DNA of 64,000 nucleotides, taken from positions 64,813 to 128,812 of the forward strand of contig CABMEV010000003.1 of assembly GCA_902385255.1 (NCBI GenBank), read 5' to 3'. This document shows, in pieces, positions 1-61,449 of the stretch; within the stretch, counting starts at the first letter, position 1; every line of letters starts with the position of its first letter. Below the pieces are notes generated by a model that was not told the origin of the DNA, searched no databases, and saw only the letters and a program-made list of their open reading frames with translations. Source of the stretch: Candidatus Tiddalikarchaeum anstoanum. GTDB taxonomy: Archaea > Nanobdellota > Nanobdellia > Tiddalikarchaeales > Tiddalikarchaeaceae. The position numbers and the translations under genes are program-made.

Positions 1-774
1 ACTGAACCAGTAATAGTGAAAAATAATAATAACAATGAATTAACAGCAAATATAAGCTTCATAAGGACGCTGCCAGACTTAACGAACACTAACAGCATAA
101 GCGTTTACGACTCATTAGGGAATTATCTGCCAACAACAGTCAAAAATAATTATTACATGATGCCAATAACAGTGCAGGTTAACACTACATTAAACTTTGA
201 CACTATAACACTGAAAAACGTGAACTTATTATCAGCAACTAATGAGGCGGTAAATGAGACAAGCATAGAAGCTTACATTAATTCAAAGAAGGCAGTAATC
301 AGACTGGATAATTTCGCATACAATAATGATTACTACAACGCTACAGTTGATATAACAATATTAGTTCCTAACGCTGAAGAAAACAGCGTGTTAAACGTGA
401 ACTTATTCTACGCAGTGAATAAGACATACAAAATAAACACTTATCCTGCATTGAACGCGGGAATCGTAATGAATTACCAGGCATTATCATCTGTTGTCAG
501 TAAGACTGTCGAAGTGATAACGCAGGTGGAACTTCTGCCTAACGAGGAAAAAGTGCTAATATTATCTTACGAATTAAACACTAATTCAGCAAGAACGTAC
601 GACTCATTAATAGAGGATGATAAAAACGTGACAGTAACAGTGCTGAACGAGTACTTTGCCGGAACAACACCTATTGTTAACTACGAATCGCAAACATCAC
701 AAAGCATAACGAAAACTGTACTGACCAGTAATAAACAGGCAATAATGACGTTGAAGGTGTGGTATTATGAATAA
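1..774 (+). CDS. Asn/Thr-rich putative cell-surface protein, 5' partial (reading frame open from window start; track start at 16 is a GTG)
   Basis: Frame 1 has no stop from position 1. Product is very rich in N/T/S with many N-x-S/T sequons. Stop overlaps the start of the next surface-protein gene. Confidence 0.4.
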   Translation, partial: TEPVIVKNNNNNELTANISFIRTLPDLTNTNSISVYDSLGNYLPTTVKNNYYMMPITVQVNTTLNFDTITLKNVNLLSATNEAVNETSIEAYINSKKAVIRLDNFAYNNDYYNATVDITILVPNAEENSVLNVNLFYAVNKTYKINTYPALNAGIVMNYQALSSVVSKTVEVITQVELLPNEEKVLILSYELNTNSARTYDSLIEDDKNVTVTVLNEYFAGTTPIVNYESQTSQSITKTVLTSNKQAIMTLKVWYYE

Positions 775-12005: not shown

Positions 12006-14270
12006 ATGTCTGACATTGTAAAGTTTTATTGTAAAGGTTGCGGAGGATACCATACCATACCCAAAGCAGATTTGAAAATTACCCCTGAAACTAAAGTAAC
12101 TACAGGCCAAGTGTTAAGATACAAGACTGACTGCGACTCAGGATGGAATATTTTATTATTCAAAAGAAATGATAATTTAGAATCAGGAGTTCCGACAGAA
12201 GTTGAGTATACAATTCCCGCATTCAGGATAAAAAATAAAGAGAAACCTAAAGCTGAAGAAGTGGAAAAAAAATCTGATTATACAATTGAAACTTTAGACT
12301 CAATACTCAGGCCGTTAAATCCCAAAGAGTACGCGAATAAAGAATTTGCACTCGGTAATGATTACGAAAATATACATTTTAAATATAGAGGGATGACTGG
12401 AGAATTCTACATCGAGGACCCTAAAATATTGAACGATAAAATATATGAAGGAAAAATAGTGTTCGTGCCAACTTCCACACTAAGCCCTGAAGCAGTAAAC
12501 TTAGTAGTCAGCGACATGGAATCATTAAGCTCATCTTATGCAGGAAAAGTGCAGAACTTGTACAAGAAAATGAAAAAGGGCGCTCCTGAAAATATTACTG
12601 TGAACCTGAACTTTGCAGGCTCCGACTCTGAACTAATACTATTCAACGGCGTAAGGGAGAGGCATGAAAATATCTCAAAACTTGAAACAGACACTGATGT
12701 TAAATCAAGGGATTCATTGAAAAAGACGATAATGAAAGCGTCGCTAAAAACAGTAGGAAGACAATTAATACTTTTACCAATACTATCATTAATACCAGGC
12801 GGGCTCATAGTATACACAGGTTACACAATATACTCAATGGGCAGGAATATTTACAACCTGACAAAAGTCGGCACAGAAACTGTACCCAGCATTGATGGTT
12901 TGACAACAAGCATCACTGCTGAATCTTCCGTAATAAACTCTGATGCAGGAAAATTAAATCTCGCCAACTTAGACAATTACATGCTAAGCAATGATTTCAA
13001 ACCTGTTGACGTTGACGGCGACAAGTTCACAGATTATTACGTGAACAATAATGACGCTGCTGATAAAGTATACGACCCTTTTTCCGACAAGAGATTCTTC
13101 GCGGACGGTGCAGTGCCCCAGACTGAACAGGCTAATATGCATAACACTTGGGACACTCTTCAAAATTATGAGTCGCATAAAGGAACGCTTGCAGAACAGC
13201 TACTTAAAGTTGCAGGTCTTAATGACTCTGTTAAATTCTTCACAGACTTAACAATAGGCTTAGCGATAACAGTAGGAGGCATACTCATAACTTACGGTAT
13301 AAGTTATGCGGTGCACGTCAAGAAGACAGGTTCGAAGATAATGGCGTTAAACCGCAAAGAACTGGCCAAGTTTTACTCAAATTCAAAATTGTCATTAAAG
13401 ACTGCTGAATTAAAGCCTGAAACGGACAATACACTCTCTGAACTAAAAAGTGTTACCTCAGAACTGACTGAGAAGAAAAACTTGTTGTTAACTTATGAGG
13501 GGAGAAAATTGGAGCTAGACAGACTACTCTCCTCCAAGAAAGAAGTTGAAGGAAAAACATTAACATTGGACGGCTTTATCAATACCAAATCGAAAGAATT
13601 ACAAGAGTATACTACTTACCTACTGGAGCAGGAACAGTATACAAAAGATACGCCTGCTTTTTTATCACTTATCAGAACTGCCTTTGATGAAGTAACTCAG
13701 AGCGAGAATACAACAAAGGATGTTAGTGACGAACAATTCTTGGAAGAGATAGTGATTCCAAAGAAGGATACTATAGTGTCAAAATTCACATTTGATTCAT
13801 TATCTTCAGCAGAAGGCATGGGTGATGTGGCAGCAAGGCGCAAGTACGTAGGCGATTATATTGATTACTTATCAAAAATTAACGATGTTAAAGGCAAGAA
13901 GAAAAAAGTTGAACAAGACCTTGAGAGACTAAACAATGAAAAAGCCGCGTTGTCATCTTCCGGAAGCACAGTGAAGAACAGCTCTGAACTTGTAGAATTG
14001 ACGACATCAATTAGCAACCTGACTAATGAGGTGCAGTCTTTAACGCTGAATCAGAACTTGCTGAATAACAGGCAGAGCAGCAAGAATAACTTATTATACA
14101 AGCATTTACTGAACGATCCTCAGCTGATATTCACGAAGGATTATGAAAACCTGCCTGGGAAGAATGAGATTATGAATTTCGTAAGCGAAGGAATCACAAA
14201 CGGGGATTTAGGCAGGGCTAAGAAAGAACTGGGCAAGTATTGCAGGAAGAATAATATACCAATCGTATAA
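12006..14270 (+). CDS. Membrane protein with N-terminal zinc-ribbon-like CxxC pair, two TM helices and a C-terminal coiled-coil region
   Basis: N-terminus FYCKGCGGYH...KTDCDSGW; hydrophobic segments LILLPILSLIPGGLIVYTGYTIY and LTIGLAITVGGILITYGISYAV; K/E/L-rich heptad-like C-terminal half. Confidence 0.4.
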   Translation: MSDIVKFYCKGCGGYHTIPKADLKITPETKVTTGQVLRYKTDCDSGWNILLFKRNDNLESGVPTEVEYTIPAFRIKNKEKPKAEEVEKKSDYTIETLDSILRPLNPKEYANKEFALGNDYENIHFKYRGMTGEFYIEDPKILNDKIYEGKIVFVPTSTLSPEAVNLVVSDMESLSSSYAGKVQNLYKKMKKGAPENITVNLNFAGSDSELILFNGVRERHENISKLETDTDVKSRDSLKKTIMKASLKTVGRQLILLPILSLIPGGLIVYTGYTIYSMGRNIYNLTKVGTETVPSIDGLTTSITAESSVINSDAGKLNLANLDNYMLSNDFKPVDVDGDKFTDYYVNNNDAADKVYDPFSDKRFFADGAVPQTEQANMHNTWDTLQNYESHKGTLAEQLLKVAGLNDSVKFFTDLTIGLAITVGGILITYGISYAVHVKKTGSKIMALNRKELAKFYSNSKLSLKTAELKPETDNTLSELKSVTSELTEKKNLLLTYEGRKLELDRLLSSKKEVEGKTLTLDGFINTKSKELQEYTTYLLEQEQYTKDTPAFLSLIRTAFDEVTQSENTTKDVSDEQFLEEIVIPKKDTIVSKFTFDSLSSAEGMGDVAARRKYVGDYIDYLSKINDVKGKKKKVEQDLERLNNEKAALSSSGSTVKNSSELVELTTSISNLTNEVQSLTLNQNLLNNRQSSKNNLLYKHLLNDPQLIFTKDYENLPGKNEIMNFVSEGITNGDLGRAKKELGKYCRKNNIPIV

Positions 14271-20230: not shown

Positions 20231-20764
20231 TTACCAGGGTTCTCTTTTAACACCTATCTTGTATCCTATAATATTGGCAGCCCTGTGGACTATAGGTGTA
20301 AGTACTAGCGCTATTATTACGATGTACCACGAGTAAGGTGTGTAAAACCTAACTGCTATTAATGAGCCTATTATGAAATCCTCCATGTCAAGAAGCCCCA
20401 TATTAGCGCCTCTTGGAAGACCCATCCTTCTCTTGTAAAAACTGCCAATTAAATCCCCAATCATTGCACCTAAACCAATGAATAAGTAAGACAGAGGAGG
20501 CAAGGAGAGAGCTGTAATAGTTGAAGGAAGGATTGATATGAAATAAGTTACTAATAATCCCATTAGATAACCCATTATGGATGCGAGTATTAATCCTTCA
20601 ATAGTTTTACCGTCGCCAAACACCCGGTTCTTCCCAATCTTCAAGCCGAAATCTAAAGGGTGCTTCTTGAAAGGCATCCTGATAAGAAAAGGAGGAGAAC
20701 CGTTCGCGATATAAGCTGGAATCAGTATTTGAAGCGTTTGAACTATAATATCAGCCAAAATCAT
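20231..20764 (-). CDS. carS: CDP-archaeol synthase (CarS family)
   Basis: 177 aa polytopic membrane protein with AYIANGSPP, HPLDFG, FGDGKTIEG and SFYKRRMGLPRG...DMEDF motifs characteristic of CarS; divergent from a CDP-alcohol phosphatidyltransferase gene. Confidence 0.65.
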   Translation of the reverse strand: MILADIIVQTLQILIPAYIANGSPPFLIRMPFKKHPLDFGLKIGKNRVFGDGKTIEGLILASIMGYLMGLLVTYFISILPSTITALSLPPLSYLFIGLGAMIGDLIGSFYKRRMGLPRGANMGLLDMEDFIIGSLIAVRFYTPYSWYIVIIALVLTPIVHRAANIIGYKIGVKREPW

Positions 20765-20818
20765 GGTATTATGCTAAATGAGTTAGGTTTTTAAAAAAAC
20801 TATTGTTCCATTATTAGA

Positions 20819-21436
20819 ATGAGCAAGCTCGAAAAAGTAAAAGGATTATTTAGCAAAGTAAACCTTCTTGAAAAAATAAAAGCAGTATTCAACAAAATTA
20901 TAGACCCTTTTTTGAATACTCTTGTAAAATTTCACGTAACGCCTAATGAGGTAACAAGCAGCGTATTCTTCTTCCTCGCAATCACTATACTATTCTTGGT
21001 TAAGAAAAACCTGGTAGTTTCAGGACTATTTTTAATACTAACATCCCTCGTTGACGCAGTGGACGGCGCACTGGCAAAGAAGGTTGGAAGCACAAGATTC
21101 GGAGACTTTTATGACGCTTTCCTGGACAGGATTGTAGAAGCTGCAATATATTTAACAATAAGCTTGGCATACCCTGAGTTGTACCTGCCTTCATTTTTCG
21201 CACTAGCATTCTCATTCATGACTAGTTACGTTGCTGCAAGGGCGGAAGTATGGACTATAGGAGTCAAGATTAAGTATTTAGGAATAGGGTCTAGGACTGG
21301 AAGATTGGTAATACTAATACTCGCATTCTTATTCAACCAGCTGCAGATAGGGTTGTATCTTATAATAATAGTTGCAGGAATAACAATGATAGGCAGAACT
21401 TATGTAACAATGAAAATATTAAGAAGTAACAGATAA
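20819..21436 (+). CDS. CDP-alcohol phosphatidyltransferase (archaetidyl-headgroup synthase family)
   Basis: DAVDGALAKKVGSTRFGDFYDAFLDRIVE matches the D-G-x2-A-R-x8-G-x3-D-x3-D signature; multiple TM helices. Confidence 0.7.
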   Translation: MSKLEKVKGLFSKVNLLEKIKAVFNKIIDPFLNTLVKFHVTPNEVTSSVFFFLAITILFLVKKNLVVSGLFLILTSLVDAVDGALAKKVGSTRFGDFYDAFLDRIVEAAIYLTISLAYPELYLPSFFALAFSFMTSYVAARAEVWTIGVKIKYLGIGSRTGRLVILILAFLFNQLQIGLYLIIIVAGITMIGRTYVTMKILRSNR

Positions 21437-21450
21437 AAAAAACTTTTTTT

Positions 21451-22176
21451 TTACTGGAATGACAATAAGTCATCAGTTGTTAACTTTTTCTTGTTCATGA
21501 GTTTTGTTATAGCTTCTTCCTCTTTCTCTTTCATGATTGCTTCTTCTTTCTTCTTCATATACTCTTTCTTCTCTATAAGAGTCTTATTCTCTTTTCTTAA
21601 TTTGTCAATCTCGTCTTTTAATATCAGCTGAAGGTTTTTGCTCTCCTTCTTGAAGCTCTTTATATCTTTCTGGAACTCCTTCATCTTCTGGCTTATCTTA
21701 TCGCTCTCTTCGGCGTTCTTGATTACAAGATTGTGATACTCGTTATGTTTCTGCCTTGCATCGCCTAATTCGTGAATGAGCTCTCTGATTCTTTTAAACA
21801 CGATGCCTTTCTTCTCAGCCTCTTTAAGCTTGGCTTTCAAACCTTTCAATTCCTTCATGATTGCTTCCTCTTTCTTGATGGATAATACATTAACCTGGAA
21901 GAACCATTCTTTCTTATTGATTATTTTCCTTAAAGTCTTGGAATCATCCTCGACTTCGTTCAATCCTTTCTTCTCCTCATTAAGATTCTTCAATTCAGAA
22001 ATAATATTTTTAATCTTATCAACCATTTCGCAGCGCTTCTCTTTATTCTCCCTGACTACTTCGTTGAACTTGTCGCGTTCGCCTTTAAGCTTATTAAACT
22101 CGTTAATGTCATCTATGATTTTAGTCCTAAGCTCGTTTTTCCTATCTTTCAGCTCGATTAATTTTTGCCTTTCCAT
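21451..22176 (-). CDS. Lys/Glu-rich coiled-coil protein
   Basis: 241 aa, highly charged with heptad-like K/E/L periodicity; no enzymatic motif. Confidence 0.3.
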   Translation of the reverse strand: MERQKLIELKDRKNELRTKIIDDINEFNKLKGERDKFNEVVRENKEKRCEMVDKIKNIISELKNLNEEKKGLNEVEDDSKTLRKIINKKEWFFQVNVLSIKKEEAIMKELKGLKAKLKEAEKKGIVFKRIRELIHELGDARQKHNEYHNLVIKNAEESDKISQKMKEFQKDIKSFKKESKNLQLILKDEIDKLRKENKTLIEKKEYMKKKEEAIMKEKEEEAITKLMNKKKLTTDDLLSFQ

Positions 22177-22403
22177 GTTTCACAACTAATAAAAAACCCT
22201 GTTTTATTATTAAATATTATGGGTATTAAATCTTTAGTTAGGGATGTTGCATTTTTATATATTTCGTATAAGCTTTTAACCACTTATCCGCTCCCTTATT
22301 TCCAGCAAATACTCTACAGCCTTATAATAATAACGTTTACGGTGCTATTTGCCGTTCCCAGGATAAAAGACTTTAAATAATATGGTTGACACCTTAAAAA
22401 ACC

Positions 22404-24065
22404 ATGAATAAAAGAACAATTCTACCTGTTTTATTACTATCACTTATACTATTAGTTAGTGGTTGTACTATAACAGTAAACCCGAACGGGGGACAAACAA
22501 GCGGAGGTAGCAGTGGACAGACAACAGGAGGCCAATCAACAAACACTCAGACTACAGGCGGCCAGACTACTGACACTACAACGCAAACTAGTACTTACGT
22601 TTCCAGCGTTACAGTAACTAGTATAACTGATTCTGAGAACAACGTTTTGTACTCAGGAGCTTCAACAAGCGACGAAATTGTAAGAGTAAGAGGTACGATT
22701 ACAGCAACTATTGGAACAACGCAATACAGTACAGTTGTATCACATAATGGTATAGAACAATTCGTAAGTGTTGGATCAACAGGAGCCTTTGAAACACCCG
22801 TTGGTATAGTACCTGGACAGAACACATTCCAAATAATAGTAAGAGACTTAGAGGGCAATATAATTGGAAGAAGTTCACAGTACATAATTAACTCGGCAAC
22901 AGTTACTAATGAGGCAGGACAAACAGTAACAGCACAAACTACAGATCTTAGAGTCACACTTACATGGAATGTTGATGACACAGATGTAGACTTGCACGTG
23001 ATAGACCCTAACCATTGTGAAGCTTACTACGCAGACAAGCAGGCAATCGAAAACGGTGCATTAGATGTAGATATCACAACAGGTTTCGGACCTGAGATAT
23101 ACACGCAAAACCAGGGTACAGCATTACTTGGAGATTATGAAGTATTAATCAACTATTACAGCAATCATGGAAACACTGAGCCGGTAACAGCAACAGTCCG
23201 CGTACAAGTAAATGAAGGAACAGTGCAGACATTCACGCACACTTTCACAACAGATGAAGGAGACGCAGCAAACTGGGTTGTTGGAAACTTCAGAATACCG
23301 ACTGCTAATATAAGCCCAACAAACAGGTGCGAAGAGTCAACAATAACGGATAATACAAATGTCTCGAATACCGAACTTGTATCAGTGACTAACCTTGCAA
23401 TTACAAGCGTTGGAGACCAGACTAGTAGCGGTATGTCAATCACGACAACTAATAGAGTAGTTACAGTGACTGGACAAGTTAGCTTTACAGGAACGCTGAA
23501 TGAGAGAGTAATATTATACGTTAACGACGTGCCACAATATGTGGAAGTTAGCAGTACAGGAAGTTTCACAGCTGAAACAGTCTTAGCACCAGGATTAAAC
23601 ACGTTAAGGATTTCAGCAGTAGATTCCACTGGGAGCGAAGTGTTCACAAGCAGGTCTTGGACCATAACAGCATCAAGCATTGCAGCAAGCGACTTAACAG
23701 TAGTATTATCATGGGATACGAATTATGATGATATGGACTTGCACGTACTTGGACCTGACGGAGTAGAAACAAACTATATTTACAAGAACACAAGCACAGG
23801 CGTATTGGACATTGATAAAACAGATGGTTATGGACCTGAAACGTTTACTCTAAACCCAACAGCACCAAACGGAGTATACGAGATAAGCACATGTTATTAT
23901 GCAAACCACGGAACTGGAAGTTCAACTGACGTCTCATACACTGAAGACTCACACATAACAGTTTCAATTACAACTAACAGGGAAACTACAACTTACAGGC
24001 ATACATTCCCCGCTGTTGACGCCGGAACTTGTTGGAGTGCAGCAAATATAACAATAGCAAGGTAA
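22404..24065 (+). CDS. Secreted lipoprotein-like protein with Thr/Gly-rich linker and two tandem copies of a ~100 aa domain
   Basis: Signal peptide with lipobox-like LLVSGC. Internal duplication: LTWNVDDTDVDLHVIDPN...DVDITTGFGPEIYT...YEVLINYYSNHG versus LSWDTNYDDMDLHVLGPD...DIDKTDGYGPETFT...YEISTCYYANHG. Confidence 0.5.
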   Translation: MNKRTILPVLLLSLILLVSGCTITVNPNGGQTSGGSSGQTTGGQSTNTQTTGGQTTDTTTQTSTYVSSVTVTSITDSENNVLYSGASTSDEIVRVRGTITATIGTTQYSTVVSHNGIEQFVSVGSTGAFETPVGIVPGQNTFQIIVRDLEGNIIGRSSQYIINSATVTNEAGQTVTAQTTDLRVTLTWNVDDTDVDLHVIDPNHCEAYYADKQAIENGALDVDITTGFGPEIYTQNQGTALLGDYEVLINYYSNHGNTEPVTATVRVQVNEGTVQTFTHTFTTDEGDAANWVVGNFRIPTANISPTNRCEESTITDNTNVSNTELVSVTNLAITSVGDQTSSGMSITTTNRVVTVTGQVSFTGTLNERVILYVNDVPQYVEVSSTGSFTAETVLAPGLNTLRISAVDSTGSEVFTSRSWTITASSIAASDLTVVLSWDTNYDDMDLHVLGPDGVETNYIYKNTSTGVLDIDKTDGYGPETFTLNPTAPNGVYEISTCYYANHGTGSSTDVSYTEDSHITVSITTNRETTTYRHTFPAVDAGTCWSAANITIAR

Positions 24066-24134
24066 TCCTTGCTATTTTTTTTTTATTTTTTTAATTAAGT
24101 TCTTAAATCATTATTGAAATCATATTACTAAATC

Positions 24135-24704
24135 ATGATATTGCTATTATTGTTCCTTTACTCTTACCTGATAGGCAGTTTTCCTACAGCGTATTTACTG
24201 GTGGAACTTTTTAAGAAAAAAAACATATTAAGACTGGGCGACGGAAACAACGGCGCCTATAATGTGTTAAAAGTTACAAAAAATTTAGGCATAACAAGTA
24301 TAGTCTTATTAATAGACGCGTTTAAAGGTGCACTAGTAGCACTGACTTATTCTTATTTTGAAAATTCAAACACAGCAGTTTTAGTTGCCTTGTCTGGTTT
24401 ACTATTAGGACATGATTATTCAATATGGCTGAATTTTAAAGGAGGTAAGGGCTTGGCTTCAGCATTCGGTGCAATGTTAATATTAGCGCCTGAATTTGTA
24501 ATAATCACATCTGTTCTTTATTTGTTGGCGTTGTTTTTAGTCAGGAAAGCTGAGCTGGCTGGATTAATCATCACCCCCGTACTTTTAGCATTAATGTTCA
24601 TCCTGAGACCTAGCCTCTTACTGCCTGCTTTCATCACAGGTTTATTAATATGCCTGAAAGATATAATTAAACTCTTAAATAGGAAAAAAGTATCAATATT
24701 TTAA
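24135..24704 (+). CDS. plsY: PlsY-like glycerol-3-phosphate acyltransferase family protein
   Basis: GSFPTAYLLVELF...RLGDGNNGAYNVLKV...LLIDAFKGALVA resembles the PlsY pattern (G-S-x-P-x-x-Y ... G-S-G-N-x-G-A-T-N ... D-x-x-K-G). Identified by motif memory only. Confidence 0.5.
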   Translation: MILLLLFLYSYLIGSFPTAYLLVELFKKKNILRLGDGNNGAYNVLKVTKNLGITSIVLLIDAFKGALVALTYSYFENSNTAVLVALSGLLLGHDYSIWLNFKGGKGLASAFGAMLILAPEFVIITSVLYLLALFLVRKAELAGLIITPVLLALMFILRPSLLLPAFITGLLICLKDIIKLLNRKKVSIF

Positions 24705-25642
24705 TGAATCTTAGCAGGATAATACTATTAACTCTGTCTCTTCTTATACTATTATTATTAATGCCTTTCTTTAACTCCATACTTGGGGGGTTTCTCATAG
24801 CTTACTTGTTCAAGTCTTTGTTCGAGTCAGTTGAGAATAAGGTGAGAAATAGGACAGTGAGCGCTGGATTGGTGACATTCGTATCAGTCATTGTTTTATT
24901 GTTAATTAATTACTTGTTCTTCAGGACAGTGATTACAAGCTTTATACAAATGCAGGCTTTGATTGATAAGAATGTATTATTGTTGAATAATATTATATCA
25001 TCAATGTCGGCGGATATTATTGTGACAAGCACTCCTTCGAACATTATTGACTACTTTTATGGCCTTTTTACAAGCGCGCCTAAAACCATACTTGATTTTA
25101 TCATAGTAGTCTCTGTCACTTTCTACTCGCTCAAGGATTTTGAAAAAGTTAAACTTTTCATAAAATCATTATTTGACCATAAAATATCCAAAGCTTTTGA
25201 CAGGATTTATGGAAGGGTTGAGCAATTAATTAATTCATTCATTTACGGGCACTTAATGGTTAGCTTGATTTTGAGCATAATGGTTTTCACCATTGTTTCA
25301 TTCCTGAAAATACCTTTTTCCCTGGAGCTTTCCTCAATTAGCTTCGCAATGGGGGTCTTTCCAATACTCAGCGCTTACATGCTTACGCTAATTGTGGGAT
25401 TTTACTACTTATTCTTCGCGGATTATTTAAGATTTATAATCTTAATAGTGGTTAGTGTCATACTTTTTTTCATAGATAGGAATGTTAAAGTATTGCTTCA
25501 TGCAAAAGACAGCATTAACCATTTGCTCCTCGTTGTCGGACTAGTCGGCGGAGTTGCAGTTTTCGGATTTTACGGCTTTATTGCAGGGCCAATCCTTACA
25601 AGCCTTGCTCAGGCATTAATAGAAGAATTATACAAATTTTAA
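24704..25642 (+). CDS. Polytopic membrane protein (possibly AI-2E/PerM-like transporter family)
   Basis: 312 aa with multiple hydrophobic helices; start overlaps the PlsY-like stop by 1 nt. Family assignment is weak. Confidence 0.3.
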   Translation: MNLSRIILLTLSLLILLLLMPFFNSILGGFLIAYLFKSLFESVENKVRNRTVSAGLVTFVSVIVLLLINYLFFRTVITSFIQMQALIDKNVLLLNNIISSMSADIIVTSTPSNIIDYFYGLFTSAPKTILDFIIVVSVTFYSLKDFEKVKLFIKSLFDHKISKAFDRIYGRVEQLINSFIYGHLMVSLILSIMVFTIVSFLKIPFSLELSSISFAMGVFPILSAYMLTLIVGFYYLFFADYLRFIILIVVSVILFFIDRNVKVLLHAKDSINHLLLVVGLVGGVAVFGFYGFIAGPILTSLAQALIEELYKF

Positions 25643-25857
25643 CGAGCATCCACTATTTTTATCGCGCCCCTTGGACAGTACTGCATTGCTGAAATATTCT
25701 GTCCTATTTTTTTTAATTTAATCTTTATAGCGTGCGCTTTTTCATCATCAAGTATTTCCCAATTTCCCGGGCATACCTTGACGCATATACCGCAGCCGTT
25801 GCATTTTTCGCGGTTTACAATTATCCTATAAAATTTCTCTTGCTTTGCCATTCTCAA
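25639..25857 (-). CDS. Small 4Fe-4S ferredoxin-like protein
   Basis: CNGCGICVKVCP plus a distal CP motif (QYCPRGA). Confidence 0.5.
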   Translation of the reverse strand: MRMAKQEKFYRIIVNREKCNGCGICVKVCPGNWEILDDEKAHAIKIKLKKIGQNISAMQYCPRGAIKIVDAR

Positions 25858-26776
25858 ATAACACCTTGTACAATTTGCTAATCAGAGGAGCATTAATCTT
25901 CCTCTTGTCTATTACTTTCTTGACTATCTTAATGGCATTTATGCCTTCAACAGTCTGGCCTACATCTTTAAGCGCTTCCTCAACGCTGAAACCCTTGGCC
26001 AGTTTTTCACCAAAACGCCTGTTCCTGCTGTGAATACTATTGCAAGTTACAATTAAGTCGCCAACACCTGCGAGAGAGTGCACTGTTTCACCGTCGCCTC
26101 CCATTATCTTGACAATTTCAGAAAGTTCTTTAAGCCCCATGCTTATAATCCCTGCCTTTGTATTATCGCCATAACCTAAGCCGTCAACTATCCCTGTCGC
26201 TATCGCGATTATATTCTTTAAGGCGCTGCACCATTCTACTCCAATAATATCACTGGTTGTAGTAATATTATAATACTCATTCTTGAACGCGTTAACCGCT
26301 GATTTTAACGCTTTAGAATCAGTTGATGCAAAGACTACATAAGTTGGAACCTTTAAAGCCACCTCGTTGGCTATGCTAGGGCCCCCTATTGACACTATTT
26401 TATTCTTAACAACATCGCTTATTACCTCGCTCATCCTCTTGTCAGTCTCATCCTCCAAACCCTTGGCAGTGTTAACTATCACTGACTTTTTTGGAATAAA
26501 ATTTGAAGATTTCACTATGACACTTTTTACGATATTGGACGGGAGCGATACCACAACTAGTTCAGCATTCTTCAATGACTCCTCAATGTTTGACGTTGCA
26601 GTAATATCCTTCTTTAATTCAACGCCCTGCAAGTACTTGTTATTCTTATGATTCTGATTGATGTCTTTGTTGACATCATCTTCTATGCTCCACAAAATTA
26701 CTTTATGATTATTATCCCCGAGCAGTTTAGCAATGGCTGTGCCCATATTCCCTGCGCCGAGTATTGTAATATTCAT
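25826..26776 (-). CDS. gpsA: NAD(P)H-dependent glycerol-3-phosphate dehydrogenase (GpsA family)
   Basis: N-terminal ITILGAGNMGTAIA Rossmann motif; central GPSIANEVA, IGVEWCSALKNIIAIATGIVDGLGYGDNTKAG and AGVGDLIVTC...SRNRRFG blocks typical of GpsA. Confidence 0.75.
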   Translation of the reverse strand: MNITILGAGNMGTAIAKLLGDNNHKVILWSIEDDVNKDINQNHKNNKYLQGVELKKDITATSNIEESLKNAELVVVSLPSNIVKSVIVKSSNFIPKKSVIVNTAKGLEDETDKRMSEVISDVVKNKIVSIGGPSIANEVALKVPTYVVFASTDSKALKSAVNAFKNEYYNITTTSDIIGVEWCSALKNIIAIATGIVDGLGYGDNTKAGIISMGLKELSEIVKIMGGDGETVHSLAGVGDLIVTCNSIHSRNRRFGEKLAKGFSVEEALKDVGQTVEGINAIKIVKKVIDKRKINAPLISKLYKVLFENGKAREIL

Positions 26777-28098
26777 GCTACTAATTCACCTGCCTTATAG
26801 ACTATTATCGTATTAGTCGTATTTTTCAAAAATAGTCCTGCTACGAATACGATAACATCATCCTTTTTAATTATCTTATTATTCAGGCAGTGTCTGGTTA
26901 TCCTAATCACTTTATCATTATCATCCCCTATATTATGCATTAAGGGCGACACACCGTAGCTAATCATGAGCTGCCTTTTAACATTGTCATTTTCAGTTAC
27001 AGCTATTATATCATTGGCCTTACTGAATCTTGAAATCATCCTCGCAGTATAACCGCTTCTAGTCAGGCATATAATCTTGCCATTCAGCTCTTCTGCTATC
27101 TTAAACGCGTTAAGAGTTATCAAATTGTGCATATTCTTTACTATATCAAAACTCGTAATCCTGGATTCTTCAACCAATCTGCATATCTTCCTCATGGCTT
27201 TTACCACTAGCGCAGGATGTCTGCCTATGCTTGTCTCACCAGACAACATTACAGTATCCGCCCCGTCTATTACTGCATTCGCAACATCACTCGTTTCAGC
27301 GCGGGTCGGAGTATTATTAGTAATCATTGACTCCATCATCTGAGTGGCAACTATTACTGGCTTTCCTGCATTGTTGCACTTTCGTATTATCATCTTCTGG
27401 ATTAAAGGTATCCTCTCGCTTGCGATTTCAACGCCTAAGTCTCCTCTCGCAACCATTACGCCATCGCACGTTTTTAATATCTCTTCGAAATTATCAACAC
27501 CTAATTTTGACTCTATTTTGGCTAATATTTTGACCCCGCTGTTTTTTAGCTTGTCCCGGACGGTTTTAATGTCATCTGCGCTGTTTGTGAATGATACAGC
27601 AACAAAATCTATGTCTTTCTTGACTGCAAAATTGAGTCCTTCAACATCCTTTTCGGACAATAATGGCAGGTTGAAATTAACACCCTTCACAACTAATTTC
27701 CTATTCTTGACCAGGATGCCATTATTCTCCATTAAAATCTTTATTTTTTTCTTATTAACATCAGTTACTTTTGCACTGTTTGCTCCGTCATTAATAAGCA
27801 GGGTCATCCCTTTCGTTAATACATGAGAAATATTTGCTGATACATCAATATCCAATACGTCGCCTTTTTCGAATTTCGCATCATTATTTAATACTCTTAA
27901 TTCCGGACCTGCAGTGTCCAAGATTATAGGGATATCACCTATTTTTCTGATATTAGCAATAATCGTTGAATACTGCTCGAAATTGCCGTATGATAAATTA
28001 ATCCTGCATGCGTTCATGCCTGAATCATACATGTCTCTAATGACTTTTTCAGCAATGCTTGCAGGCCCTACAGTGCATAATATTTTCGTATTGTTCAT
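26773..28098 (-). CDS. pyk: Pyruvate kinase
   Basis: KILCTVGPAS...GMNACRINLSYG N-terminal signature; MVARGDLGVE and VATQMMESM active-site blocks. Confidence 0.85.
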   Translation of the reverse strand: MNNTKILCTVGPASIAEKVIRDMYDSGMNACRINLSYGNFEQYSTIIANIRKIGDIPIILDTAGPELRVLNNDAKFEKGDVLDIDVSANISHVLTKGMTLLINDGANSAKVTDVNKKKIKILMENNGILVKNRKLVVKGVNFNLPLLSEKDVEGLNFAVKKDIDFVAVSFTNSADDIKTVRDKLKNSGVKILAKIESKLGVDNFEEILKTCDGVMVARGDLGVEIASERIPLIQKMIIRKCNNAGKPVIVATQMMESMITNNTPTRAETSDVANAVIDGADTVMLSGETSIGRHPALVVKAMRKICRLVEESRITSFDIVKNMHNLITLNAFKIAEELNGKIICLTRSGYTARMISRFSKANDIIAVTENDNVKRQLMISYGVSPLMHNIGDDNDKVIRITRHCLNNKIIKKDDVIVFVAGLFLKNTTNTIIVYKAGELVA

Positions 28099-28104
28099 AA
28101 TCTC

Positions 28105-28971
28105 TTAATCACTATCCTTAATCATACTCGTCGCTGCCAAAACTCCGCTTCCAACAGCTGTGCTTATCTGATAAGAGTTTGGAGTGCAGTCTCCTGCCGC
28201 CCATACCTTTGGAACGTTCGTCTTCATCTCAGAGTCAACTTTTATTTTATTACCTGTTAATGCCATGCCTAAGCTTTTTGCAAAATCAGTTGATGAAGCG
28301 TCGCCGAGAGCTATGAATACGCCGTCCGTTTTGATTACTCTTTTTCCGCTTTTAACACCTGTCACTTTGTCGCCGCCTATTATTTCGTCAATTTTTAAAT
28401 CTTCAACCTTTATGCCTGCCTTTTTCGTCTTTGATACTAAGTCGTTGCTTATCTTTAACTCTTCGCCGTTTGTGATTATGGTTAAGTCTTTTGTAAAAAC
28501 AAGAAGTTGTAATGCGGTTCTCGCTGCGAAATCGCCGCTTCCTATTATAAGCACTTTTTTATTTTTGAAGAAGAACCCGTCGCACGTTGCGCAGTAAGAA
28601 ACACCCCTTCCTGTGAATTTTTCCTCACCCTTAATGTTTGAATTCTTAGGAGTATTCCCTGTTGCTACTAACAGCATTCTGGATTCAAAGGAGTTATTAC
28701 CAGTATGTATTATGAATCTGTCTGTGAATTCAACGTTCGTCGCCAAATCATCAACTATTTCAGCGCCGAAGCTTTTTGCCTGATTATATCCTTTCTCCAT
28801 GATTTCGGCGCCGTTAGTCACTCCTGTCGCGAAATAATTGTTTATTATTACATTAGTATTCCATATCTTGTTCTTTTTGCCAAGCACTAAGACGCTTCTT
28901 CCTGCTTTTGCAAGGTATATCGCTGCTGCTAAGCCAGAAGGTCCAGCGCCGAGTATTACAGCATCTAACAT
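28105..28971 (-). CDS. trxB: Thioredoxin reductase-like FAD-dependent disulfide oxidoreductase
   Basis: LDAVILGAGPSGLAAAIY FAD motif, CATCDGFFF redox-active CxxC, VLIIGSGDFA second Rossmann motif. Start placed at internal Met (track ORF extends to 29016, overlapping the upstream gene). Confidence 0.75.
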   Translation of the reverse strand: MLDAVILGAGPSGLAAAIYLAKAGRSVLVLGKKNKIWNTNVIINNYFATGVTNGAEIMEKGYNQAKSFGAEIVDDLATNVEFTDRFIIHTGNNSFESRMLLVATGNTPKNSNIKGEEKFTGRGVSYCATCDGFFFKNKKVLIIGSGDFAARTALQLLVFTKDLTIITNGEELKISNDLVSKTKKAGIKVEDLKIDEIIGGDKVTGVKSGKRVIKTDGVFIALGDASSTDFAKSLGMALTGNKIKVDSEMKTNVPKVWAAGDCTPNSYQISTAVGSGVLAATSMIKDSD

Positions 28972-28991
28972 AAAATATATAAGAAGATTGT

Positions 28992-29720
28992 TTATTTTAT
29001 TAACTCTTTCATGCAAGTGACAAAAAGCCTTCTTGAATCCTTGTTCGGGCCCTTTCCATTCTCATCAAAGATTTGTTTAACCTTGAATCCCGCACTTATG
29101 AGCGCAGCTTCCACTTTTTTAAGAGGGAATGTTTTTTCAACAACTTGGTCTGAAAACATCTTGTACATATTGCCTTTCTTTTTTAGGATTATATCATCCC
29201 ATAATGCCAAATCATTCCTGCTTGATGTCTGAGACAGGACTATAGTGTCCATTAATTTCGACCAGCTTCTTTTAGGCTCTTTGAAAGAGTCAAACTTTGC
29301 CTGCGTGTTAAAGTCGAATATGAATAGTCCTTTTTCACTTAAATGGTTGTATGTGTTTTTGAATGTTTTCTGCCAGTCGTCAAACACTTTTAAGTGGTTT
29401 ATGGTGTCGTACATGCACAGTATTACGTCGAATTTCTTGTTTAATCTGAAGCTGGTCATGTCTGCCTGTATGTACTTGGATTTTTTGTCTTTCTTCCTGG
29501 CTATTGCCAGCATCTCTTTTGATATGTCAAGCCCTGTGGTTTCAAATTTTTTCGATAAGGGAATCAGTATATTCCCTGTTCCGCATCCGAGTTCCAGCAC
29601 TGACTTTGCAGTCCTATCATACTTGTTAATCATGGATGTGATTATTTTGTTGAACTTAGCGTAAATCTCTTCACCCATAAGTTCATCATAAACGCTTGCC
29701 AATTCTTTATACGCAGCCAT
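28992..29720 (-). CDS. Class I SAM-dependent methyltransferase
   Basis: VLELGCGTGNILIPL motif I and downstream acidic residue (GLDIS). Confidence 0.6.
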   Translation of the reverse strand: MAAYKELASVYDELMGEEIYAKFNKIITSMINKYDRTAKSVLELGCGTGNILIPLSKKFETTGLDISKEMLAIARKKDKKSKYIQADMTSFRLNKKFDVILCMYDTINHLKVFDDWQKTFKNTYNHLSEKGLFIFDFNTQAKFDSFKEPKRSWSKLMDTIVLSQTSSRNDLALWDDIILKKKGNMYKMFSDQVVEKTFPLKKVEAALISAGFKVKQIFDENGKGPNKDSRRLFVTCMKELIK

Positions 29721-29761: not shown

Positions 29762-31864
29762 CTAGTTTAAATTATTGATTTTGATTCTTTTCCTGTTTTC
29801 TAAATTTAGAACTTCTTCATGTATTTTTCTCTCTAAATTTTTTTGGCTTGGAATAAAGCCTGTATATTGTTTTTTGAAGAAATTAATATAACTTATTAAA
29901 TCCTGATAAAATTTTTCTTTTTCCGTATTACTAGAATTTTTCTTTAAAGGCTCCAATGTGTTAAGAGGATAGAAGAAACTTAAGTATTCTTCCGGGCGGC
30001 TGTAAAATTCTTTGTTTAAAACTCCAAAAGGGTATATTGCATTTCCAAAATGCAGGTCTTTCTGCCTGGATTCATAATGTTTTTTTATAAATCTATCCCA
30101 TTCTTTTTTCATATCATCAGGTAAATCGTTTCCTTTCGAGTCTTTTAACTCGCTTGTTTTAATGAGTGTAAAATTTGGTTTGCTTGCTGAATATCTTGTA
30201 TTATACATTTTTGACCAGCCGTTTCCACCTTCTGCTTCTGTTAACAGATTTGGCATATAACCTAATTTATACCATCCTCCAAAACATGAAGTTAAAACAT
30301 TTGCGTTTTTATAGAATTGGTACTTGTTAAATAAAGGATTGGCATTGTAAACCCAGCACTTGTGCAGTTTAAAGTCACGGTCAGGCCCGAATGTTATTAT
30401 TGCTTCAACATCCCGTTCCCCATTGTTAACCTTAGTTTTTCCGCTTTGAATAGGTTCAGTTATTGCAGATACGAAAGGTACTGGGCGATTCTGATACTGT
30501 GCAGGAGGACATGTTGTTCCAGGCATTAATACACCCCTCACCATTGAACCGCTCTTTAAACCTGTCCTCACCATTTTAACGTCATAATCCTCTTGGAAGT
30601 TTACTAAATCCCATTTTAATTTAGGTGTTAATAAATCCATACCATATTTTTTAAGAAGGTGAAAATCAACTTGTTTCTCTGTCCATCCAAGAACATAATA
30701 TAAGTAGATGCCTTCACCAATTACGTTTGTAAACAATTTATTAATCCTTGCACGTCTGCTGTCTGCGAGCAATGCTATTCTTGAAGCAGGTTTTCCATCT
30801 TCATTATTATAATTCACAAGCACTTCTTCCAAAAGTTCATTAGGCATGAAAGGGCTTTCAATAACTTCATATAATGTTAATAATGTTTTAACTGCATCAT
30901 CAACTTTTTGCAGATTAAAACTTTCAACCTCTTGATTTTCAGGCAATTCTATACTTATCCTATGGCCTAAACCATTAGAGTAAGCTGTTCCTTTTTTTAA
31001 TGCAATCATAGTCATTATTACATACTTGGTTATTGCAGCATTATTTTCATACTCAGGTCTTCCGCTTAACTTACTTGTGCACAAAAGCGTTGTGTCTGAA
31101 TATTCAGCATTGTCACGGTACTCTATGTATATTGAACCATTTTTTTTAACAATGACGACCGGCTGTTTTATACTAACCTGGTGGACTAGCTTGTCTTTCT
31201 TTGTTGCGCTGTCAACGTCAAATTTTCCAAAATGGCCTTTATACTGGCCTTTGATGAATATGTCTAAAGCGAATTTTTCATCATTAAAGCCTACAGTGTT
31301 AAAGTCAATTTTTTTCCTGTCATTATCATAAAACTCTAACATGTCAAGTATTGTTCTGTTAGGGGCTTTTTTTCCATCAACTATTTTGTAATCTACAGGC
31401 CTGCTGCCGTAAAAGTATAATACGGCTTTAATATGGTCCATCAAACCGTAAGTTAGGTAATAATCTTCTTGATGGTCTGTCAAAATATCTTGGCGTTCAA
31501 GTCTCGCTCCGAAACATCTTGGAACATTCGGAGCCTCATGGTCATTAAGTTTTTCATTGAAAGGTCCGACTAAGTTGCTGTTAGCATACCTTCCAGAATT
31601 ATATTGTGACTTGACAAAAGAACCTATGACTCCGTCATCAATGCTTTCAGCGTTGCAGAACCTGTTTGTGGAATTATTTAATGGGTCTATATTTGATGAA
31701 ATACCTTTCTCATTGAACTTATCGCGCATATATTGCGTAATTGGAAAAACATTGCCGTATTTTTGCACTAATTTGTTGTATACTTTTATCCCTCCATAAT
31801 TGATTATGAATTCAGTTAGGAACGCTTCCTGTACATTAAGTAATTCATTAAGAGTAATACTCAT
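29762..31864 (-). CDS. Large hypothetical protein (700 aa), no recognisable family
   Basis: Long intact ORF with globular, non-repetitive composition; no signal peptide or TM helix evident; no motif recognised. Confidence 0.3.
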   Translation of the reverse strand: MSITLNELLNVQEAFLTEFIINYGGIKVYNKLVQKYGNVFPITQYMRDKFNEKGISSNIDPLNNSTNRFCNAESIDDGVIGSFVKSQYNSGRYANSNLVGPFNEKLNDHEAPNVPRCFGARLERQDILTDHQEDYYLTYGLMDHIKAVLYFYGSRPVDYKIVDGKKAPNRTILDMLEFYDNDRKKIDFNTVGFNDEKFALDIFIKGQYKGHFGKFDVDSATKKDKLVHQVSIKQPVVIVKKNGSIYIEYRDNAEYSDTTLLCTSKLSGRPEYENNAAITKYVIMTMIALKKGTAYSNGLGHRISIELPENQEVESFNLQKVDDAVKTLLTLYEVIESPFMPNELLEEVLVNYNNEDGKPASRIALLADSRRARINKLFTNVIGEGIYLYYVLGWTEKQVDFHLLKKYGMDLLTPKLKWDLVNFQEDYDVKMVRTGLKSGSMVRGVLMPGTTCPPAQYQNRPVPFVSAITEPIQSGKTKVNNGERDVEAIITFGPDRDFKLHKCWVYNANPLFNKYQFYKNANVLTSCFGGWYKLGYMPNLLTEAEGGNGWSKMYNTRYSASKPNFTLIKTSELKDSKGNDLPDDMKKEWDRFIKKHYESRQKDLHFGNAIYPFGVLNKEFYSRPEEYLSFFYPLNTLEPLKKNSSNTEKEKFYQDLISYINFFKKQYTGFIPSQKNLERKIHEEVLNLENRKRIKINNLN

Positions 31865-55054: not shown

Positions 55055-55057
55055 CTT

Positions 55058-61353: not shown

Positions 61354-61449
61354 GAAAAATAATGAAATTATCACTTAATTAAAAAGCTTTTATTAAAAAT
61401 CGTATTAAAAAGATATTTAAACAATAATTTTTAGCTACTTTTACTGCAA

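Follow-up and report, generated by a model that had tools for sequence, protein, structure and literature searches.

The window, a 64,000-nt stretch of an archaeal contig of the tiny, host-dependent DPANN archaeon 'Ca. Tiddalikarchaeum anstoanum', carries a real lipid-related gene cluster organized in three separate transcription units, and the most likely role of this cluster is lipid salvage rather than de novo synthesis. We propose, with a probability of about one half, that exogenous fatty acids are salvaged and attached to a glycerol-phosphate-like acceptor, while scavenged archaeal lipids undergo CDP-activation in parallel.

Gene content and gene order of the region

An earlier note had placed genes for CarS, a CDP-alcohol phosphatidyltransferase, a PlsY-like protein and GpsA in this region. 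All four are present, at most 6.5 kb apart on one contig, with profile matches far beyond chance:

20231–20764, minus strand: CDP-archaeol synthase (CarS), 177 aa (PF01864, 2e-29; NF003114 equivalog)
20819–21436, plus strand: CDP-alcohol phosphatidyltransferase, apparently of inositol-phosphate type, 205 aa (PF01066, 6e-10)
21451–22176, minus strand: conserved coiled-coil protein of unknown function, 241 aa, marking the collinear block
22404–24065, plus strand: secreted protein, 553 aa; N-terminus lipobox-like (LLVSGC), linker rich in Thr/Gly/Gln
24135–24704, plus strand: divergent PlsY-family membrane acyltransferase homologue, 189 aa (PF02660, 7e-31, 108 bits)
24704–25642, plus strand: AI-2E/PerM-family transporter, 312 aa (PF01594, 7e-28)
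25639–25857, minus strand: small 4Fe-4S ferredoxin, 72 aa (PF00037, PF13459)
25826–26776, minus strand: NAD(P)H-dependent sn-glycerol-3-phosphate dehydrogenase GpsA, bacterial type, 316 aa (PF01210, 6e-47; PF07479, 1e-50; PF20618, 4e-18)
26773–28098, minus strand: pyruvate kinase, 441 aa (TIGR01064, 417 bits, above the cut-off of 306)
28105–29016, minus strand: thioredoxin-reductase-like flavoprotein, 303 aa (PF07992, 2e-41)

Archaeal genes (RFC, TBP, MCM, aIF2beta, aIF5B, L7Ae, exosome, proteasome, SBDS, Pop5) flank the cluster on both sides. Its GC content (0.35–0.39) matches that of the rest of the window with no compositional anomaly, and the same gene linkage was found again in independent assemblies from other samples. 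The uniform GC content and conserved synteny indicate that the cluster genes are resident and not contaminants, and together with the archaeal flanks and the recurrence they rule out an artefact of binning or assembly. In Pfam scans that covered essentially all window ORFs of at least 110 aa, and relevant shorter ones, no G1P dehydrogenase, GGGPS, UbiA/DGGGPS, PlsC, PlsX or CdsA was detected, so that the reported lack of G1P dehydrogenase and GGGP/DGGGP synthase in the window holds; several ORFs had no Pfam match. FakA and DegV genes were likewise absent from the window.

CarS scored 159.7 bits with the NF003114 model (cut-off 148) and aligned over its full length to A. pernix CarS (PDB 5GUF, 3e-23); orthologues with 51–56% identity occupy the same position in loci L001, L003 and L093 of relatives. 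A 54-bp spacer separates CarS from the divergent phosphatidyltransferase gene. For the latter protein the top NCBIfam model was archaetidylinositol phosphate synthase (NF040950, 116.8 bits, below the cut-off of 180) and the top PDB match was mycobacterial PIP synthase (6H53, 3e-8), while the PgsA and PssA models gave only about 19 bits. The motif DAVDGALAKKVGSTRFGDFYDAFLD starts at residue 79 (pattern D-x2-DG-x2-A-K-x7-G-x3-D-x3-D). In sequence, the protein resembles archaetidylinositol-phosphate synthase.

The block RFC-TBP-MCM-aIF2beta-CarS-transferase-AI-2E-ferredoxin-GpsA-PK recurs in relatives, and in L093 the whole block is present without PlsY. The coiled-coil protein, which matched no significant Pfam family, is 46% identical to its 237-aa counterpart at the same place in L001 and 45% identical to the 214-aa protein of L093. 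The genes for the secreted protein (weak DUF2135 and Glucodextran_B matches only) and PlsY are an insertion relative to L093, where no gene intervenes between the coiled-coil gene and AI-2E; in L001 nothing but a 47-aa ORF call occupies this position. Upstream of the PlsY-like gene there is a T-rich tract as well as an AT-rich stretch, and the stop of this gene overlaps the AI-2E start by 1 nt. AI-2E is co-transcribed with PlsY in the window; in L001 and L093 it adjoins the ferredoxin and GpsA genes without PlsY alongside. The closeness of the archaeal-type and bacterial-type genes, given previously as about 4 kb, is present, but it is no sign of functional coupling, since the collinearity is shared with replication and translation genes: the proximity of CarS and the transferase to GpsA is inherited gene order.

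The GpsA-type assignment was borne out as canonical and bacterial in type. The protein scored 341 bits with NF000942 (cut-off 257), and its nearest solved structure was that of T. maritima (1Z82, 8e-65; KG(L/I)E, GPS and SRNRRFG stretches aligned and conserved), with the A. fulgidus enzyme behind (3e-42). Its relatives comprise about 13 proteins at 50–65% identity, one of them named as Nanoarchaeota, followed by Clostridia and Bacilli at 42–46%. The gene belongs to a flavoprotein-PK-GpsA-ferredoxin operon. The flavoprotein (TIGR01292, 220.6 bits, below the cut-off of 343) is its first conserved gene and lies upstream of PK also in L001, L003 and L093; pyruvate kinase overlaps GpsA by 4 nt, an adjacency kept in L001 and L093; and the ferredoxin, the last gene, overlaps the GpsA 3′ end by 32 nt and has the same position in L093. 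Because pyruvate kinase is a member of the same operon, GpsA may equally well act in central carbon or redox metabolism.

The PlsY-family protein and the fatty-acid kinase link

The product of 24135–24704 had been described as a PlsY-like acyl-phosphate:G3P acyltransferase. Its family membership stood up to scrutiny. The protein matched the canonical PlsY of Aquifex aeolicus (aaPlsY, PDB 5XJ5–5XJ9; 5XJ5 at 4e-13), its AlphaFold (AF2) model (pLDDT 87.3) has the seven-helix fold with a TM score of about 0.82 to 5XJ5–5XJ8, and PlsY structures were its only Foldseek matches at E ≤ 0.001; it does not belong to an unrelated membrane family. The G3P specificity fared worse, and from the sequence the full enzyme label is not secure. 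With TIGR00023, the NCBI PlsY equivalog, the protein reached 105.5 bits, below the cut-off of 137.2. The residues at aaPlsY positions 35/41/45/92/104/142/177/180 are D/Y/K/H/K/G/L/(D or I): Asn37, His92, Lys104 and the FKGGKG phosphate-hole loop are kept, whereas Ser35 (D), Thr41 (Y), Arg45 (K), Ser142 (G), His177 (L) and Asn180 (D or I) are replaced. Five of the six G3P-pocket residues and Thr41 are thus lost, and since His92 and the loop are invariant, the acyl-phosphate site is largely kept. In aaPlsY, the R45K, H177L and N180D mutants retain 6%, 2.5% and 3% of activity, each a loss of more than 90%.

The G3P-pocket residues vary among DPANN orthologues too, which suggests relaxed or different constraint; among those compared, His177 is lost in this genome only. 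In a rough NJ tree the DPANN PlsY proteins form a separate clade. A search of 1.84 billion cluster representatives returned none but the protein itself below 1e-30, and about two-thirds of the nearest 150 representatives were likewise non-canonical. In genome-collection loci, non-canonical bacterial PlsY homologues never adjoin gpsA, whereas canonical ones often do.

FakA and DegV/FakB are the two parts of the fatty-acid kinase, which makes acyl-phosphate. FakA-DegV-PlsY clusters occur in five DPANN assemblies (L001/L008, L003/L005, L085, L087, L094), where the gene context is of three kinds, and in Heimdallarchaeota L074; Heimdallarchaeota L050 has DegV-PlsY, its locus starting just upstream, so that the FakA position falls outside the view. 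The FakA proteins of these clusters are short (about 300 aa, Dak2 + FakA_M) and the second gene encodes a true DegV/FakB (180 bits vs. 43 bits for FakA_C). No PlsC was seen beside the clusters of relatives. 'Ca. Tiddalikarchaeum anstoanum' has its own FakA-like protein, P0245 (VVB74250.1), encoded on another, 88-kb contig and 56% identical to the FakA of L003. In bacteria, FakAB provides PlsY with acyl-phosphate (PMC10146087, PMC13014828), and the operon of PlsY with a fatty-acid kinase in relatives points to salvage of outside fatty acids. We found no paper describing such a link in archaea, and the organism's source paper makes no mention of lipids.

Proposed lipid salvage and its alternatives

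In the proposed scheme, judged by family membership, CarS would activate archaeal diether phosphatidic acid with CTP and the transferase would then attach a head group. The CarS substrate is presumably scavenged from outside, because no backbone or prenyl-transfer enzymes (G1PDH, GGGPS, DGGGPS) were found in the window. A FakA/FakB-type kinase would convert outside free fatty acids to acyl-phosphate, and the PlsY-family protein would use it to acylate a glycerol-phosphate-like acceptor, yielding an ester lysolipid. GpsA, by its family a producer of sn-G3P from DHAP, could supply the simplest candidate acceptor; given the loss of most canonical G3P-pocket residues, G1P or a different polar molecule may serve instead. 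Salvage is supported by the gene identities, the kept PlsY fold and acyl-phosphate site, the Fak clustering and the organism's own FakA, as well as by the acceptance of both G1P and G3P by bacterial PlsY (PMC13400652) and the common lack of complete lipid pathways in DPANN cluster 2 genomes (PMC7414124). Against it count the lost pocket residues and their variation, the missed PlsY cut-off, the absence of FakA and DegV from the window, the GpsA operon partners, which point to central metabolism, and the preference of characterised CarS for DGGGP over phosphatidic acid (PMC9385802); as no PlsC was seen, a diacyl lipid is unaccounted for. The observation in the earlier note is confirmed and its interpretation partly supported: the Fak operons and own FakA strengthen the bacterial-type side, whereas the full PlsY enzyme label is not secure, the proximity reflects inherited order and GpsA may equally serve central metabolism.

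A possible, somewhat less probable reading is that no bacterial-type membrane lipid is made. The PlsY-like protein would have a changed function (another acceptor) or be decaying (no catalysis), GpsA would have a central-carbon or redox role, serving as a sink for DHAP and NAD(P)H or in the use of scavenged G3P, and the closeness to CarS would be conserved order only. The pocket losses, including the genome-specific one of His177, the activity losses caused by the same substitutions, the sub-threshold score, the prevalence of non-canonical proteins among the nearest representatives and the gpsA pattern in bacteria fit this explanation, as do the conserved overlap of GpsA with pyruvate kinase and ferredoxin, the PlsY-free block of L093 and the separation of PlsY from FakA in this genome; Coleman et al. 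judged a role of archaeal PlsY/PlsC in membrane synthesis unlikely (PMC6431249). Yet the fold, His92 and the phosphate-hole loop are strictly conserved and the gene is intact and overlaps the downstream operon gene. Moreover, the tight, often overlapping packing of FakA-DegV-PlsY in DPANN with non-canonical PlsY is hard to explain unless acyl-phosphate is still used.

That both halves form a single hybrid pathway, in which the CarS homologue would activate acyl-glycerol-phosphate from Fak/PlsY with CTP and the neighbouring transferase would add the inositol-phosphate head group, so that archaeal head-group enzymes finish a bacterial-type lipid, is unlikely. L003 has a contiguous CarS / CDP-OH transferase - FakA - DegV - PlsY order, the window has no CdsA, and crude-membrane CarS is little selective for ester vs. 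ether or G1P vs. G3P given geranylgeranyl chains (PMC9385802). However, L001, L085, L087, L094 and the window do not share this contiguity, PlsC for a diacyl substrate is not present, and purified A. fulgidus CarS strongly favours DGGGP over phosphatidic acid and does not replace E. coli CdsA (PMC9385802). Finally, although GpsA and PlsY are bacterial in type and metagenome bins are the source of all published archaeal PlsY sequences (PMC6431249), mis-binning or chimeric assembly of bacterial genes into an archaeal MAG can in practice be regarded as refuted: the genes are physically linked to archaeal informational genes on either side and overlap neighbours of archaeal context, the GC content is uniform, and the linkage recurs in independent assemblies.

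Comparison with known systems

Compared with the canonical archaeal CDP-archaeol branch, the window has an equivalog-level CarS and a transferase nearest to the AIPS and PIPS models; the transferase falls under the AIPS cut-off and the upstream enzymes of the branch are not in the window. The FakA/FakB-PlsY pathway of Firmicutes (S. aureus, B. subtilis, E. faecalis), which serves exogenous fatty-acid incorporation, is matched in relatives by the clustering of a Dak2-type kinase, a DegV-type fatty-acid-binding protein and a PlsY-family acyltransferase, and in the window by GpsA, available for G3P supply. In contrast to that pathway, the archaeal FakA lacks the C-terminal domain of its bacterial homologues of about 520 aa, DPANN PlsY lacks the canonical G3P clamp, PlsX and PlsC were not seen, and the window holds only PlsY and GpsA.

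Bacterial-type lipid genes in archaeal bins (MGII/III, Asgard, DPANN) have been described before (Villanueva 2017, as cited by others; Coleman 2019, PMC6431249; Castelle 2021, PMC8204110), GpsA and PlsY in DPANN bins among them (PMC6431249, PMC8204110); their authors remarked that PlsX was missing and were doubtful of a function. As in those bins, the GpsA and PlsY homologues of an uncultured archaeon are here bacterial in ancestry, and a G1P dehydrogenase is not evident locally. The present case differs in that a single contig physically links GpsA and PlsY to CarS and to archaeal informational genes, and in that a candidate acyl-phosphate source, Fak, was found both in relatives and in the organism's own genome.

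Lipid genes and their genomic setting

Ca. Tiddalikarchaeum anstoanum (DPANN, class Nanoarchaeia, order Tiddalikarchaeales, CG07-land) was described from the groundwater of a radioactive-waste site in Australia and is probably a host-dependent fermenter, without amino-acid and nucleotide biosynthesis and without the GAPDH/PGK steps of glycolysis (PMC8561730). Lipids are mentioned neither in its source paper nor in the supplements (PMC8561730). Pfam and NCBIfam profile matches established that the four lipid gene families named in the earlier note all correspond to real genes, which form three transcription units:

20231-20764, minus strand, CarS (CDP-archaeol synthase); equivalog NF003114, 159.7 bits, cut-off 148
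20819-21436, plus strand, CDP-alcohol phosphatidyltransferase; PF01066, 40 bits, cut-off 22
24135-24704, plus strand, PlsY-like ORF; PF02660, 108 bits over residues 10-173, cut-off 24.1
25826-26776, minus strand, GpsA (NAD(P)H-dependent sn-glycerol-3-phosphate dehydrogenase); NF000942, 341 bits, cut-off 257

No G1P dehydrogenase, GGGPS, UbiA, PlsC, PlsX or CdsA was found within the window, in line with the earlier statement that it holds neither G1P dehydrogenase nor GGGP/DGGGP synthase. Archaeal genes are spread across the whole window (RFC small and large subunits, TBP, MCM, an RPA-like OB-fold protein, aIF2beta, aIF5B, L7Ae, exosome subunits, proteasome alpha, SBDS and Pop5) and its GC content is uniform. 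A chimeric or contaminant origin of the lipid genes was ruled out by this archaeal context, by the GC content and by recurrence in other assemblies.

Several other features of the window were recorded. A 457-aa RNase E/G family protein (PF10150, 2e-10) sits between the two RNase PH genes of an exosome operon (52105-55744, minus strand; Rrp4, RNase PH, RNase PH). At 60079-61374 (minus strand), a 431-aa protein joins a nucleoside-phosphorylase domain (PNP_UDP_1) to a phosphoribosyltransferase domain; it may act in nucleotide salvage, the genome reportedly having no de novo nucleotide synthesis. Large ORFs of 444-948 aa without a Pfam family at E <= 1e-4 occupy 767-3613, 9865-11877, 12006-14270, 29762-31864 and 33803-35137.

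CarS and the transferase are divergently transcribed from a 54-bp spacer. CarS aligns along its whole length (residues 5-177) with A. pernix CarS 5GUF, a solved structure (3e-23). In the transferase, DAVDGALAKKVGSTRFGDFYDAFLD at residue 79 matches the family signature D-x2-DG-x2-AR-x7,8-G-x3-D-x3-D with Lys replacing Arg. The equivalog for archaetidylinositol-phosphate synthase (AIPS, NF040950) was the best model by far at 116.8 bits, yet under its cut-off of 180; the PIPS model gave 78.5 bits, those for PgsA and PssA about 19 bits each. These profiles place the protein nearest to archaetidylinositol-phosphate and PIP synthases, even if it misses the AIPS cut-off. A PgsA-type transferase, with GpsA as head-group supplier, was ruled out by the scores (about 19 bits for PgsA vs. 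117 for AIPS).

GpsA is an enzyme of textbook bacterial type. Besides NF000942 it matches PF01210 (159.9 bits) and PF07479 (171.9 bits), and among solved structures it is most similar to T. maritima 1Z82 (8e-65, residues 2-309), the A. fulgidus enzyme ranking behind. Stretches conserved with 1Z82 are GAGxxG, KG(L/I)E, GPS, ALKN(I/V)IAIA and SRNRRFGE, which we take to be nucleotide-binding and substrate motifs. The gene belongs to one tight minus-strand operon (25639-29016) with a thioredoxin-reductase-like flavoprotein, pyruvate kinase and a 72-aa ferredoxin, the gaps being +6, -4 and -32 nt. Such a combination of a glycolytic kinase, G3P dehydrogenase and redox proteins is unusual in an organism reportedly without GAPDH/PGK. 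The operon is also kept in L001 (GCA_016931175) and L093 (GCA_053993895), two homologue-bearing loci from related assemblies. In L092 (GCA_053993175, 10001-12193), a locus of another relative, a UbiA-family prenyltransferase comes directly after a GpsA orthologue (53% identical). This echoes the observation in Woesearchaeota of a G3P dehydrogenase of bacterial type close to UbiA and MEP genes (Castelle et al., 2021; PMC8204110).

The side-by-side position of archaeal-type and bacterial-type lipid genes, to which the earlier note had drawn attention, was confirmed as an arrangement; the proximity as such carries little meaning. L093 has the order flavoprotein-PK-GpsA-ferredoxin-AI-2E-coiled-coil protein-transferase-CarS-DUF424-aIF2beta-RPA-MCM-TBP-RFC, which is that of the window minus PlsY and a 553-aa secreted protein. 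The core of this block is likewise present in L001, and the coiled-coil gene between the transferase and AI-2E is orthologous in all three (45-46% identity of the window with L001 and L093). CarS and GpsA are thus neighbours because a long block including replication and translation genes is collinear in the lineage. An inference of functional coupling of CarS and GpsA from proximity was rejected, as the collinearity in L093 and L001 runs from RFC to the flavoprotein and takes in unrelated informational genes as well as the coiled-coil gene. Relative to L093, PlsY and the secreted protein are an insertion into the block. The latter (22404-24065, plus strand, directly upstream of PlsY) has a lipobox-like N-terminus (LLVSGC) and a long Thr/Gly/Gln-rich linker; its only Pfam matches, DUF2135 and Glucodextran_B, are weak, and self-BLAST detected no internal repeat.

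The PlsY-like protein and its relatives

A T-rich tract lies upstream of the PlsY-like gene, whose downstream end overlaps the start of an AI-2E-family transporter gene. The earlier note had allowed that its product might belong to an unrelated membrane family. This is not so: besides the PF02660 match (108 bits), the AF2 model (mean pLDDT 87.3, pTM 0.80) has the seven-transmembrane PlsY fold, and a Foldseek search against the PDB gave matches at E <= 0.001 solely to PlsY entries 5XJ5-5XJ8 (five chains, TM 0.81-0.83). The profile check proposed at that stage came out cleanly for GpsA (341 vs. 257 bits) and in part for PlsY, which passes PF02660 and reaches 105.5 bits on the equivalog TIGR00023, under the curated cut-off of 137.2.

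In PlsY from Aquifex aeolicus (aaPlsY), the acyl-phosphate site is formed by Thr41 and His92 together with the 104-107 backbone, and the "invariable" G3P pocket comprises Ser35, Arg45, Lys104, Asn180, Ser142 and His177, the first four of these forming the phosphate clamp (PMC5700162). His92, Asn37 and Lys104 are all present in the window protein, as is the FKGGKG loop (FKGGKGLA over phosphate-hole residues 100-107). At the acyl-phosphate site, His92 and the phosphate-hole loop are retained and Thr41 is replaced by Tyr; in the G3P pocket, Lys104 is the sole residue retained.

Residues of the PlsY-like protein at functional positions of aaPlsY
Position 35: Asp
Position 41: Tyr
Position 45: Lys
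Position 142: Gly
Position 177: Leu
Position 180: no Asn; Asp or Ile, by one-residue gap placement

The C-terminal motif can be aligned in two ways, one residue apart, and Asn is missing in both. In aaPlsY itself, the changes R45K, H177L and N180D left 6.25%, 2.5% and 3.3% of the activity, and T41A left 4.75%; Tyr at position 41 was not among the variants assayed there (PMC5700162). On the evidence of its residues, the protein falls outside the canonical G3P acyltransferases.

A search of 1.84 billion cluster representatives gave no score below 1e-30 except for the PlsY-like protein itself, and about two thirds of its 150 nearest representatives were also non-canonical. DPANN orthologues have in common a Tyr/Phe at position 41, a lost Arg45 and the replacement of H-x-x-N-I-x-R by H-K-D-hydrophobic-I-K, and differ from one another at the remaining pocket positions. 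Loss of His177 was seen in the window protein only, which is the most degenerate example among the DPANN copies. In a neighbour-joining tree, a rough guide only as it has no support values, DPANN PlsY fell in clades of their own, apart from canonical PlsY (Heimdall proteins included) and also separate from a large non-canonical bacterial clade. The Heimdallarchaeota proteins of L074 and L050 have the canonical signature S-S-R-H-K-N-H-N.

One large non-canonical PlsY-like subfamily (proteins P0004-P0018 and P0361-P0440; loci L006, L009-L017 and L089-L091) has named examples from Ignavibacteria, Bacteroidota and Chitinophagaceae, its eight functional positions reading, e.g., S-[LMR]-[ED]-H-R-N-H-P. 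In the sampled bacterial loci, canonical plsY directly adjoined gpsA 17 times and non-canonical plsY never did. The gene neighbours of the nearest non-canonical bacterial proteins gave no clue to function.

Clustering of PlsY with putative fatty-acid kinase genes

In related DPANN assemblies, the PlsY gene stands in a tight, often overlapping cluster with FakA-type and DegV genes. The archaeal FakA has about 300 aa, with Dak2 and FakA-middle domains and no C-terminal domain. The DegV-family member scored 180 bits on DegV vs. 43 bits on FakA_C, and the second gene of the cluster is therefore FakB-like. Five DPANN assemblies and Heimdallarchaeota L074 carry the three-gene cluster.

PlsY clusters in archaeal loci of other assemblies
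L001/L008 (L001 8309-11123): aIF5B-FakA-DegV-PlsY1-PlsY2
L094 8336-11132: aIF5B-FakA-DegV-PlsY1-PlsY2
L003/L005 (L003 8315-10540): CarS / transferase-FakA-DegV-PlsY
L087 10001-12242: FakA-DegV-PlsY
L085 9350-11684: PlsY-FakA-DegV
L074 7992-10717 (Heimdallarchaeota): cluster of short FakA, DegV/FakB and PlsY
L050 506-2132 (Heimdallarchaeota): DegV-PlsY, right at the locus start

Downstream of FakA-DegV, L001 (10001-11123) and L094 (10001-11132) carry tandem overlapping paralogues, both non-canonical; PlsY2 retains Thr41, and its residue at the position of His177 is Tyr. Only a copy of PlsY1 type occurs in the window.

Short FakA homologues are common in Heimdallarchaeota, with matches also in Bathyarchaeia and Diapherotrites. 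Within the 64-kb window, tblastn with the DPANN proteins detected no FakA, DegV or second PlsY, and Pfam found no Dak2 kinase-domain protein or DegV among the ORFs; PlsX, the other supplier of acyl-phosphate, is likewise missing from it. The aIF5B-adjacent slot, which holds FakA-DegV-PlsY in L001 and L094, is taken in the window by two other genes, one for a 700-aa protein of unknown function, the other for a methyltransferase. The Tiddalikarchaeum genome does encode a FakA-like protein on another, 88-kb contig (P0245, VVB74250.1; Dak2 and FakA_M domains, 56% identical to that of L003).

The cluster of Fak and PlsY genes recurs across varied genomic settings and across two archaeal superphyla, which provides real evidence for a functional coupling of FakA, DegV and PlsY. 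Together with the conserved phosphate hole, this synteny supports acyl-phosphate as the probable donor for the PlsY-like protein.

Proposed function and comparison with known systems

Beyond family membership, the functions discussed here are what we infer. In DPANN cluster 2, lipid pathways are commonly incomplete and lipids are obtained from hosts (PMC7414124). Most likely, the region would represent a lipid salvage toolkit. CarS and the inositol-phosphate transferase would activate scavenged archaeal diether lipids anew and give them a new head group, Fak and PlsY would load scavenged fatty acids onto a glycerol-phosphate-like acceptor, and GpsA could supply sn-G3P. This acceptor is a putative one: the pocket has been rebuilt in DPANN PlsY, and PlsY of bacteria accepts both G1P and G3P (PMC13400652).

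The main rival explanation is that the window PlsY no longer performs acyl-phosphate transfer and that GpsA is a metabolic enzyme, a role favoured by its place in the pyruvate-kinase operon. Less likely is one hybrid pathway in which CarS acts on acyl lipids, because the known preference of CarS is for DGGGP, which the A. fulgidus enzyme, the sole one so characterised, prefers over phosphatidic acid (PMC9385802).

A bolder version of the salvage reading would have a working Fak-PlsY route esterify scavenged fatty acids onto glycerol phosphate in DPANN and Heimdallarchaeota, the pocket rebuilt in the DPANN lineage of the window perhaps taking another acceptor, and yield mixed membranes together with CarS and the transferase. 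We consider this unlikely, at roughly one chance in five. If true, the other acceptor may be G1P or an archaeal lyso-/ether lipid, and a living archaeon would have mixed ester/ether, possibly heterochiral, membranes.

GpsA and PlsY homologues have already been published from DPANN, Asgard and MGII bins (PMC6431249, PMC8204110, PMC13400652); no earlier discussion of those of Ca. Tiddalikarchaeum anstoanum was found. Neither firm physical linkage, nor the non-canonical pocket, nor an archaeal Fak-PlsY cluster was found described in the open-access literature, where we also found no report of Fak in archaea, which is not proof of none. Bacterial-type PlsY/GpsA in archaeal bins have been invoked in the lipid-divide debate and discounted on two grounds, their origin from bins and the lack of an acyl-phosphate source, PlsX (PMC6431249, PMC7242380). 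In the window, such genes are physically embedded in an archaeal chromosome context. The missing piece suggested by the comparative data is a kinase of FakA/FakB type, whose genes cluster with PlsY in Heimdallarchaeota and several DPANN. The absence of PlsX alongside archaeal and CPR PlsY, a stated objection to function (PMC6431249, PMC7242380), is answered by this clustering. A vague idea of mixed membranes thereby becomes a defined three- or four-protein pathway open to expression and assay. As DPANN PlsY proteins, and that of the window most of all, are non-canonical, it is premature to claim bacterial lipids for these archaea from annotation.

In bacteria, FakA/FakB is a kinase that converts free fatty acids to acyl-phosphate, the donor for PlsY (PMC10146087, PMC13014828); here, the PlsY-like gene lies in the window and the FakA homologue elsewhere in the same genome. 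Compared with canonical aaPlsY, the window protein is alike in fold, His92 and phosphate-hole loop, whereas Thr41 is replaced and its G3P pocket differs in all but Lys104.
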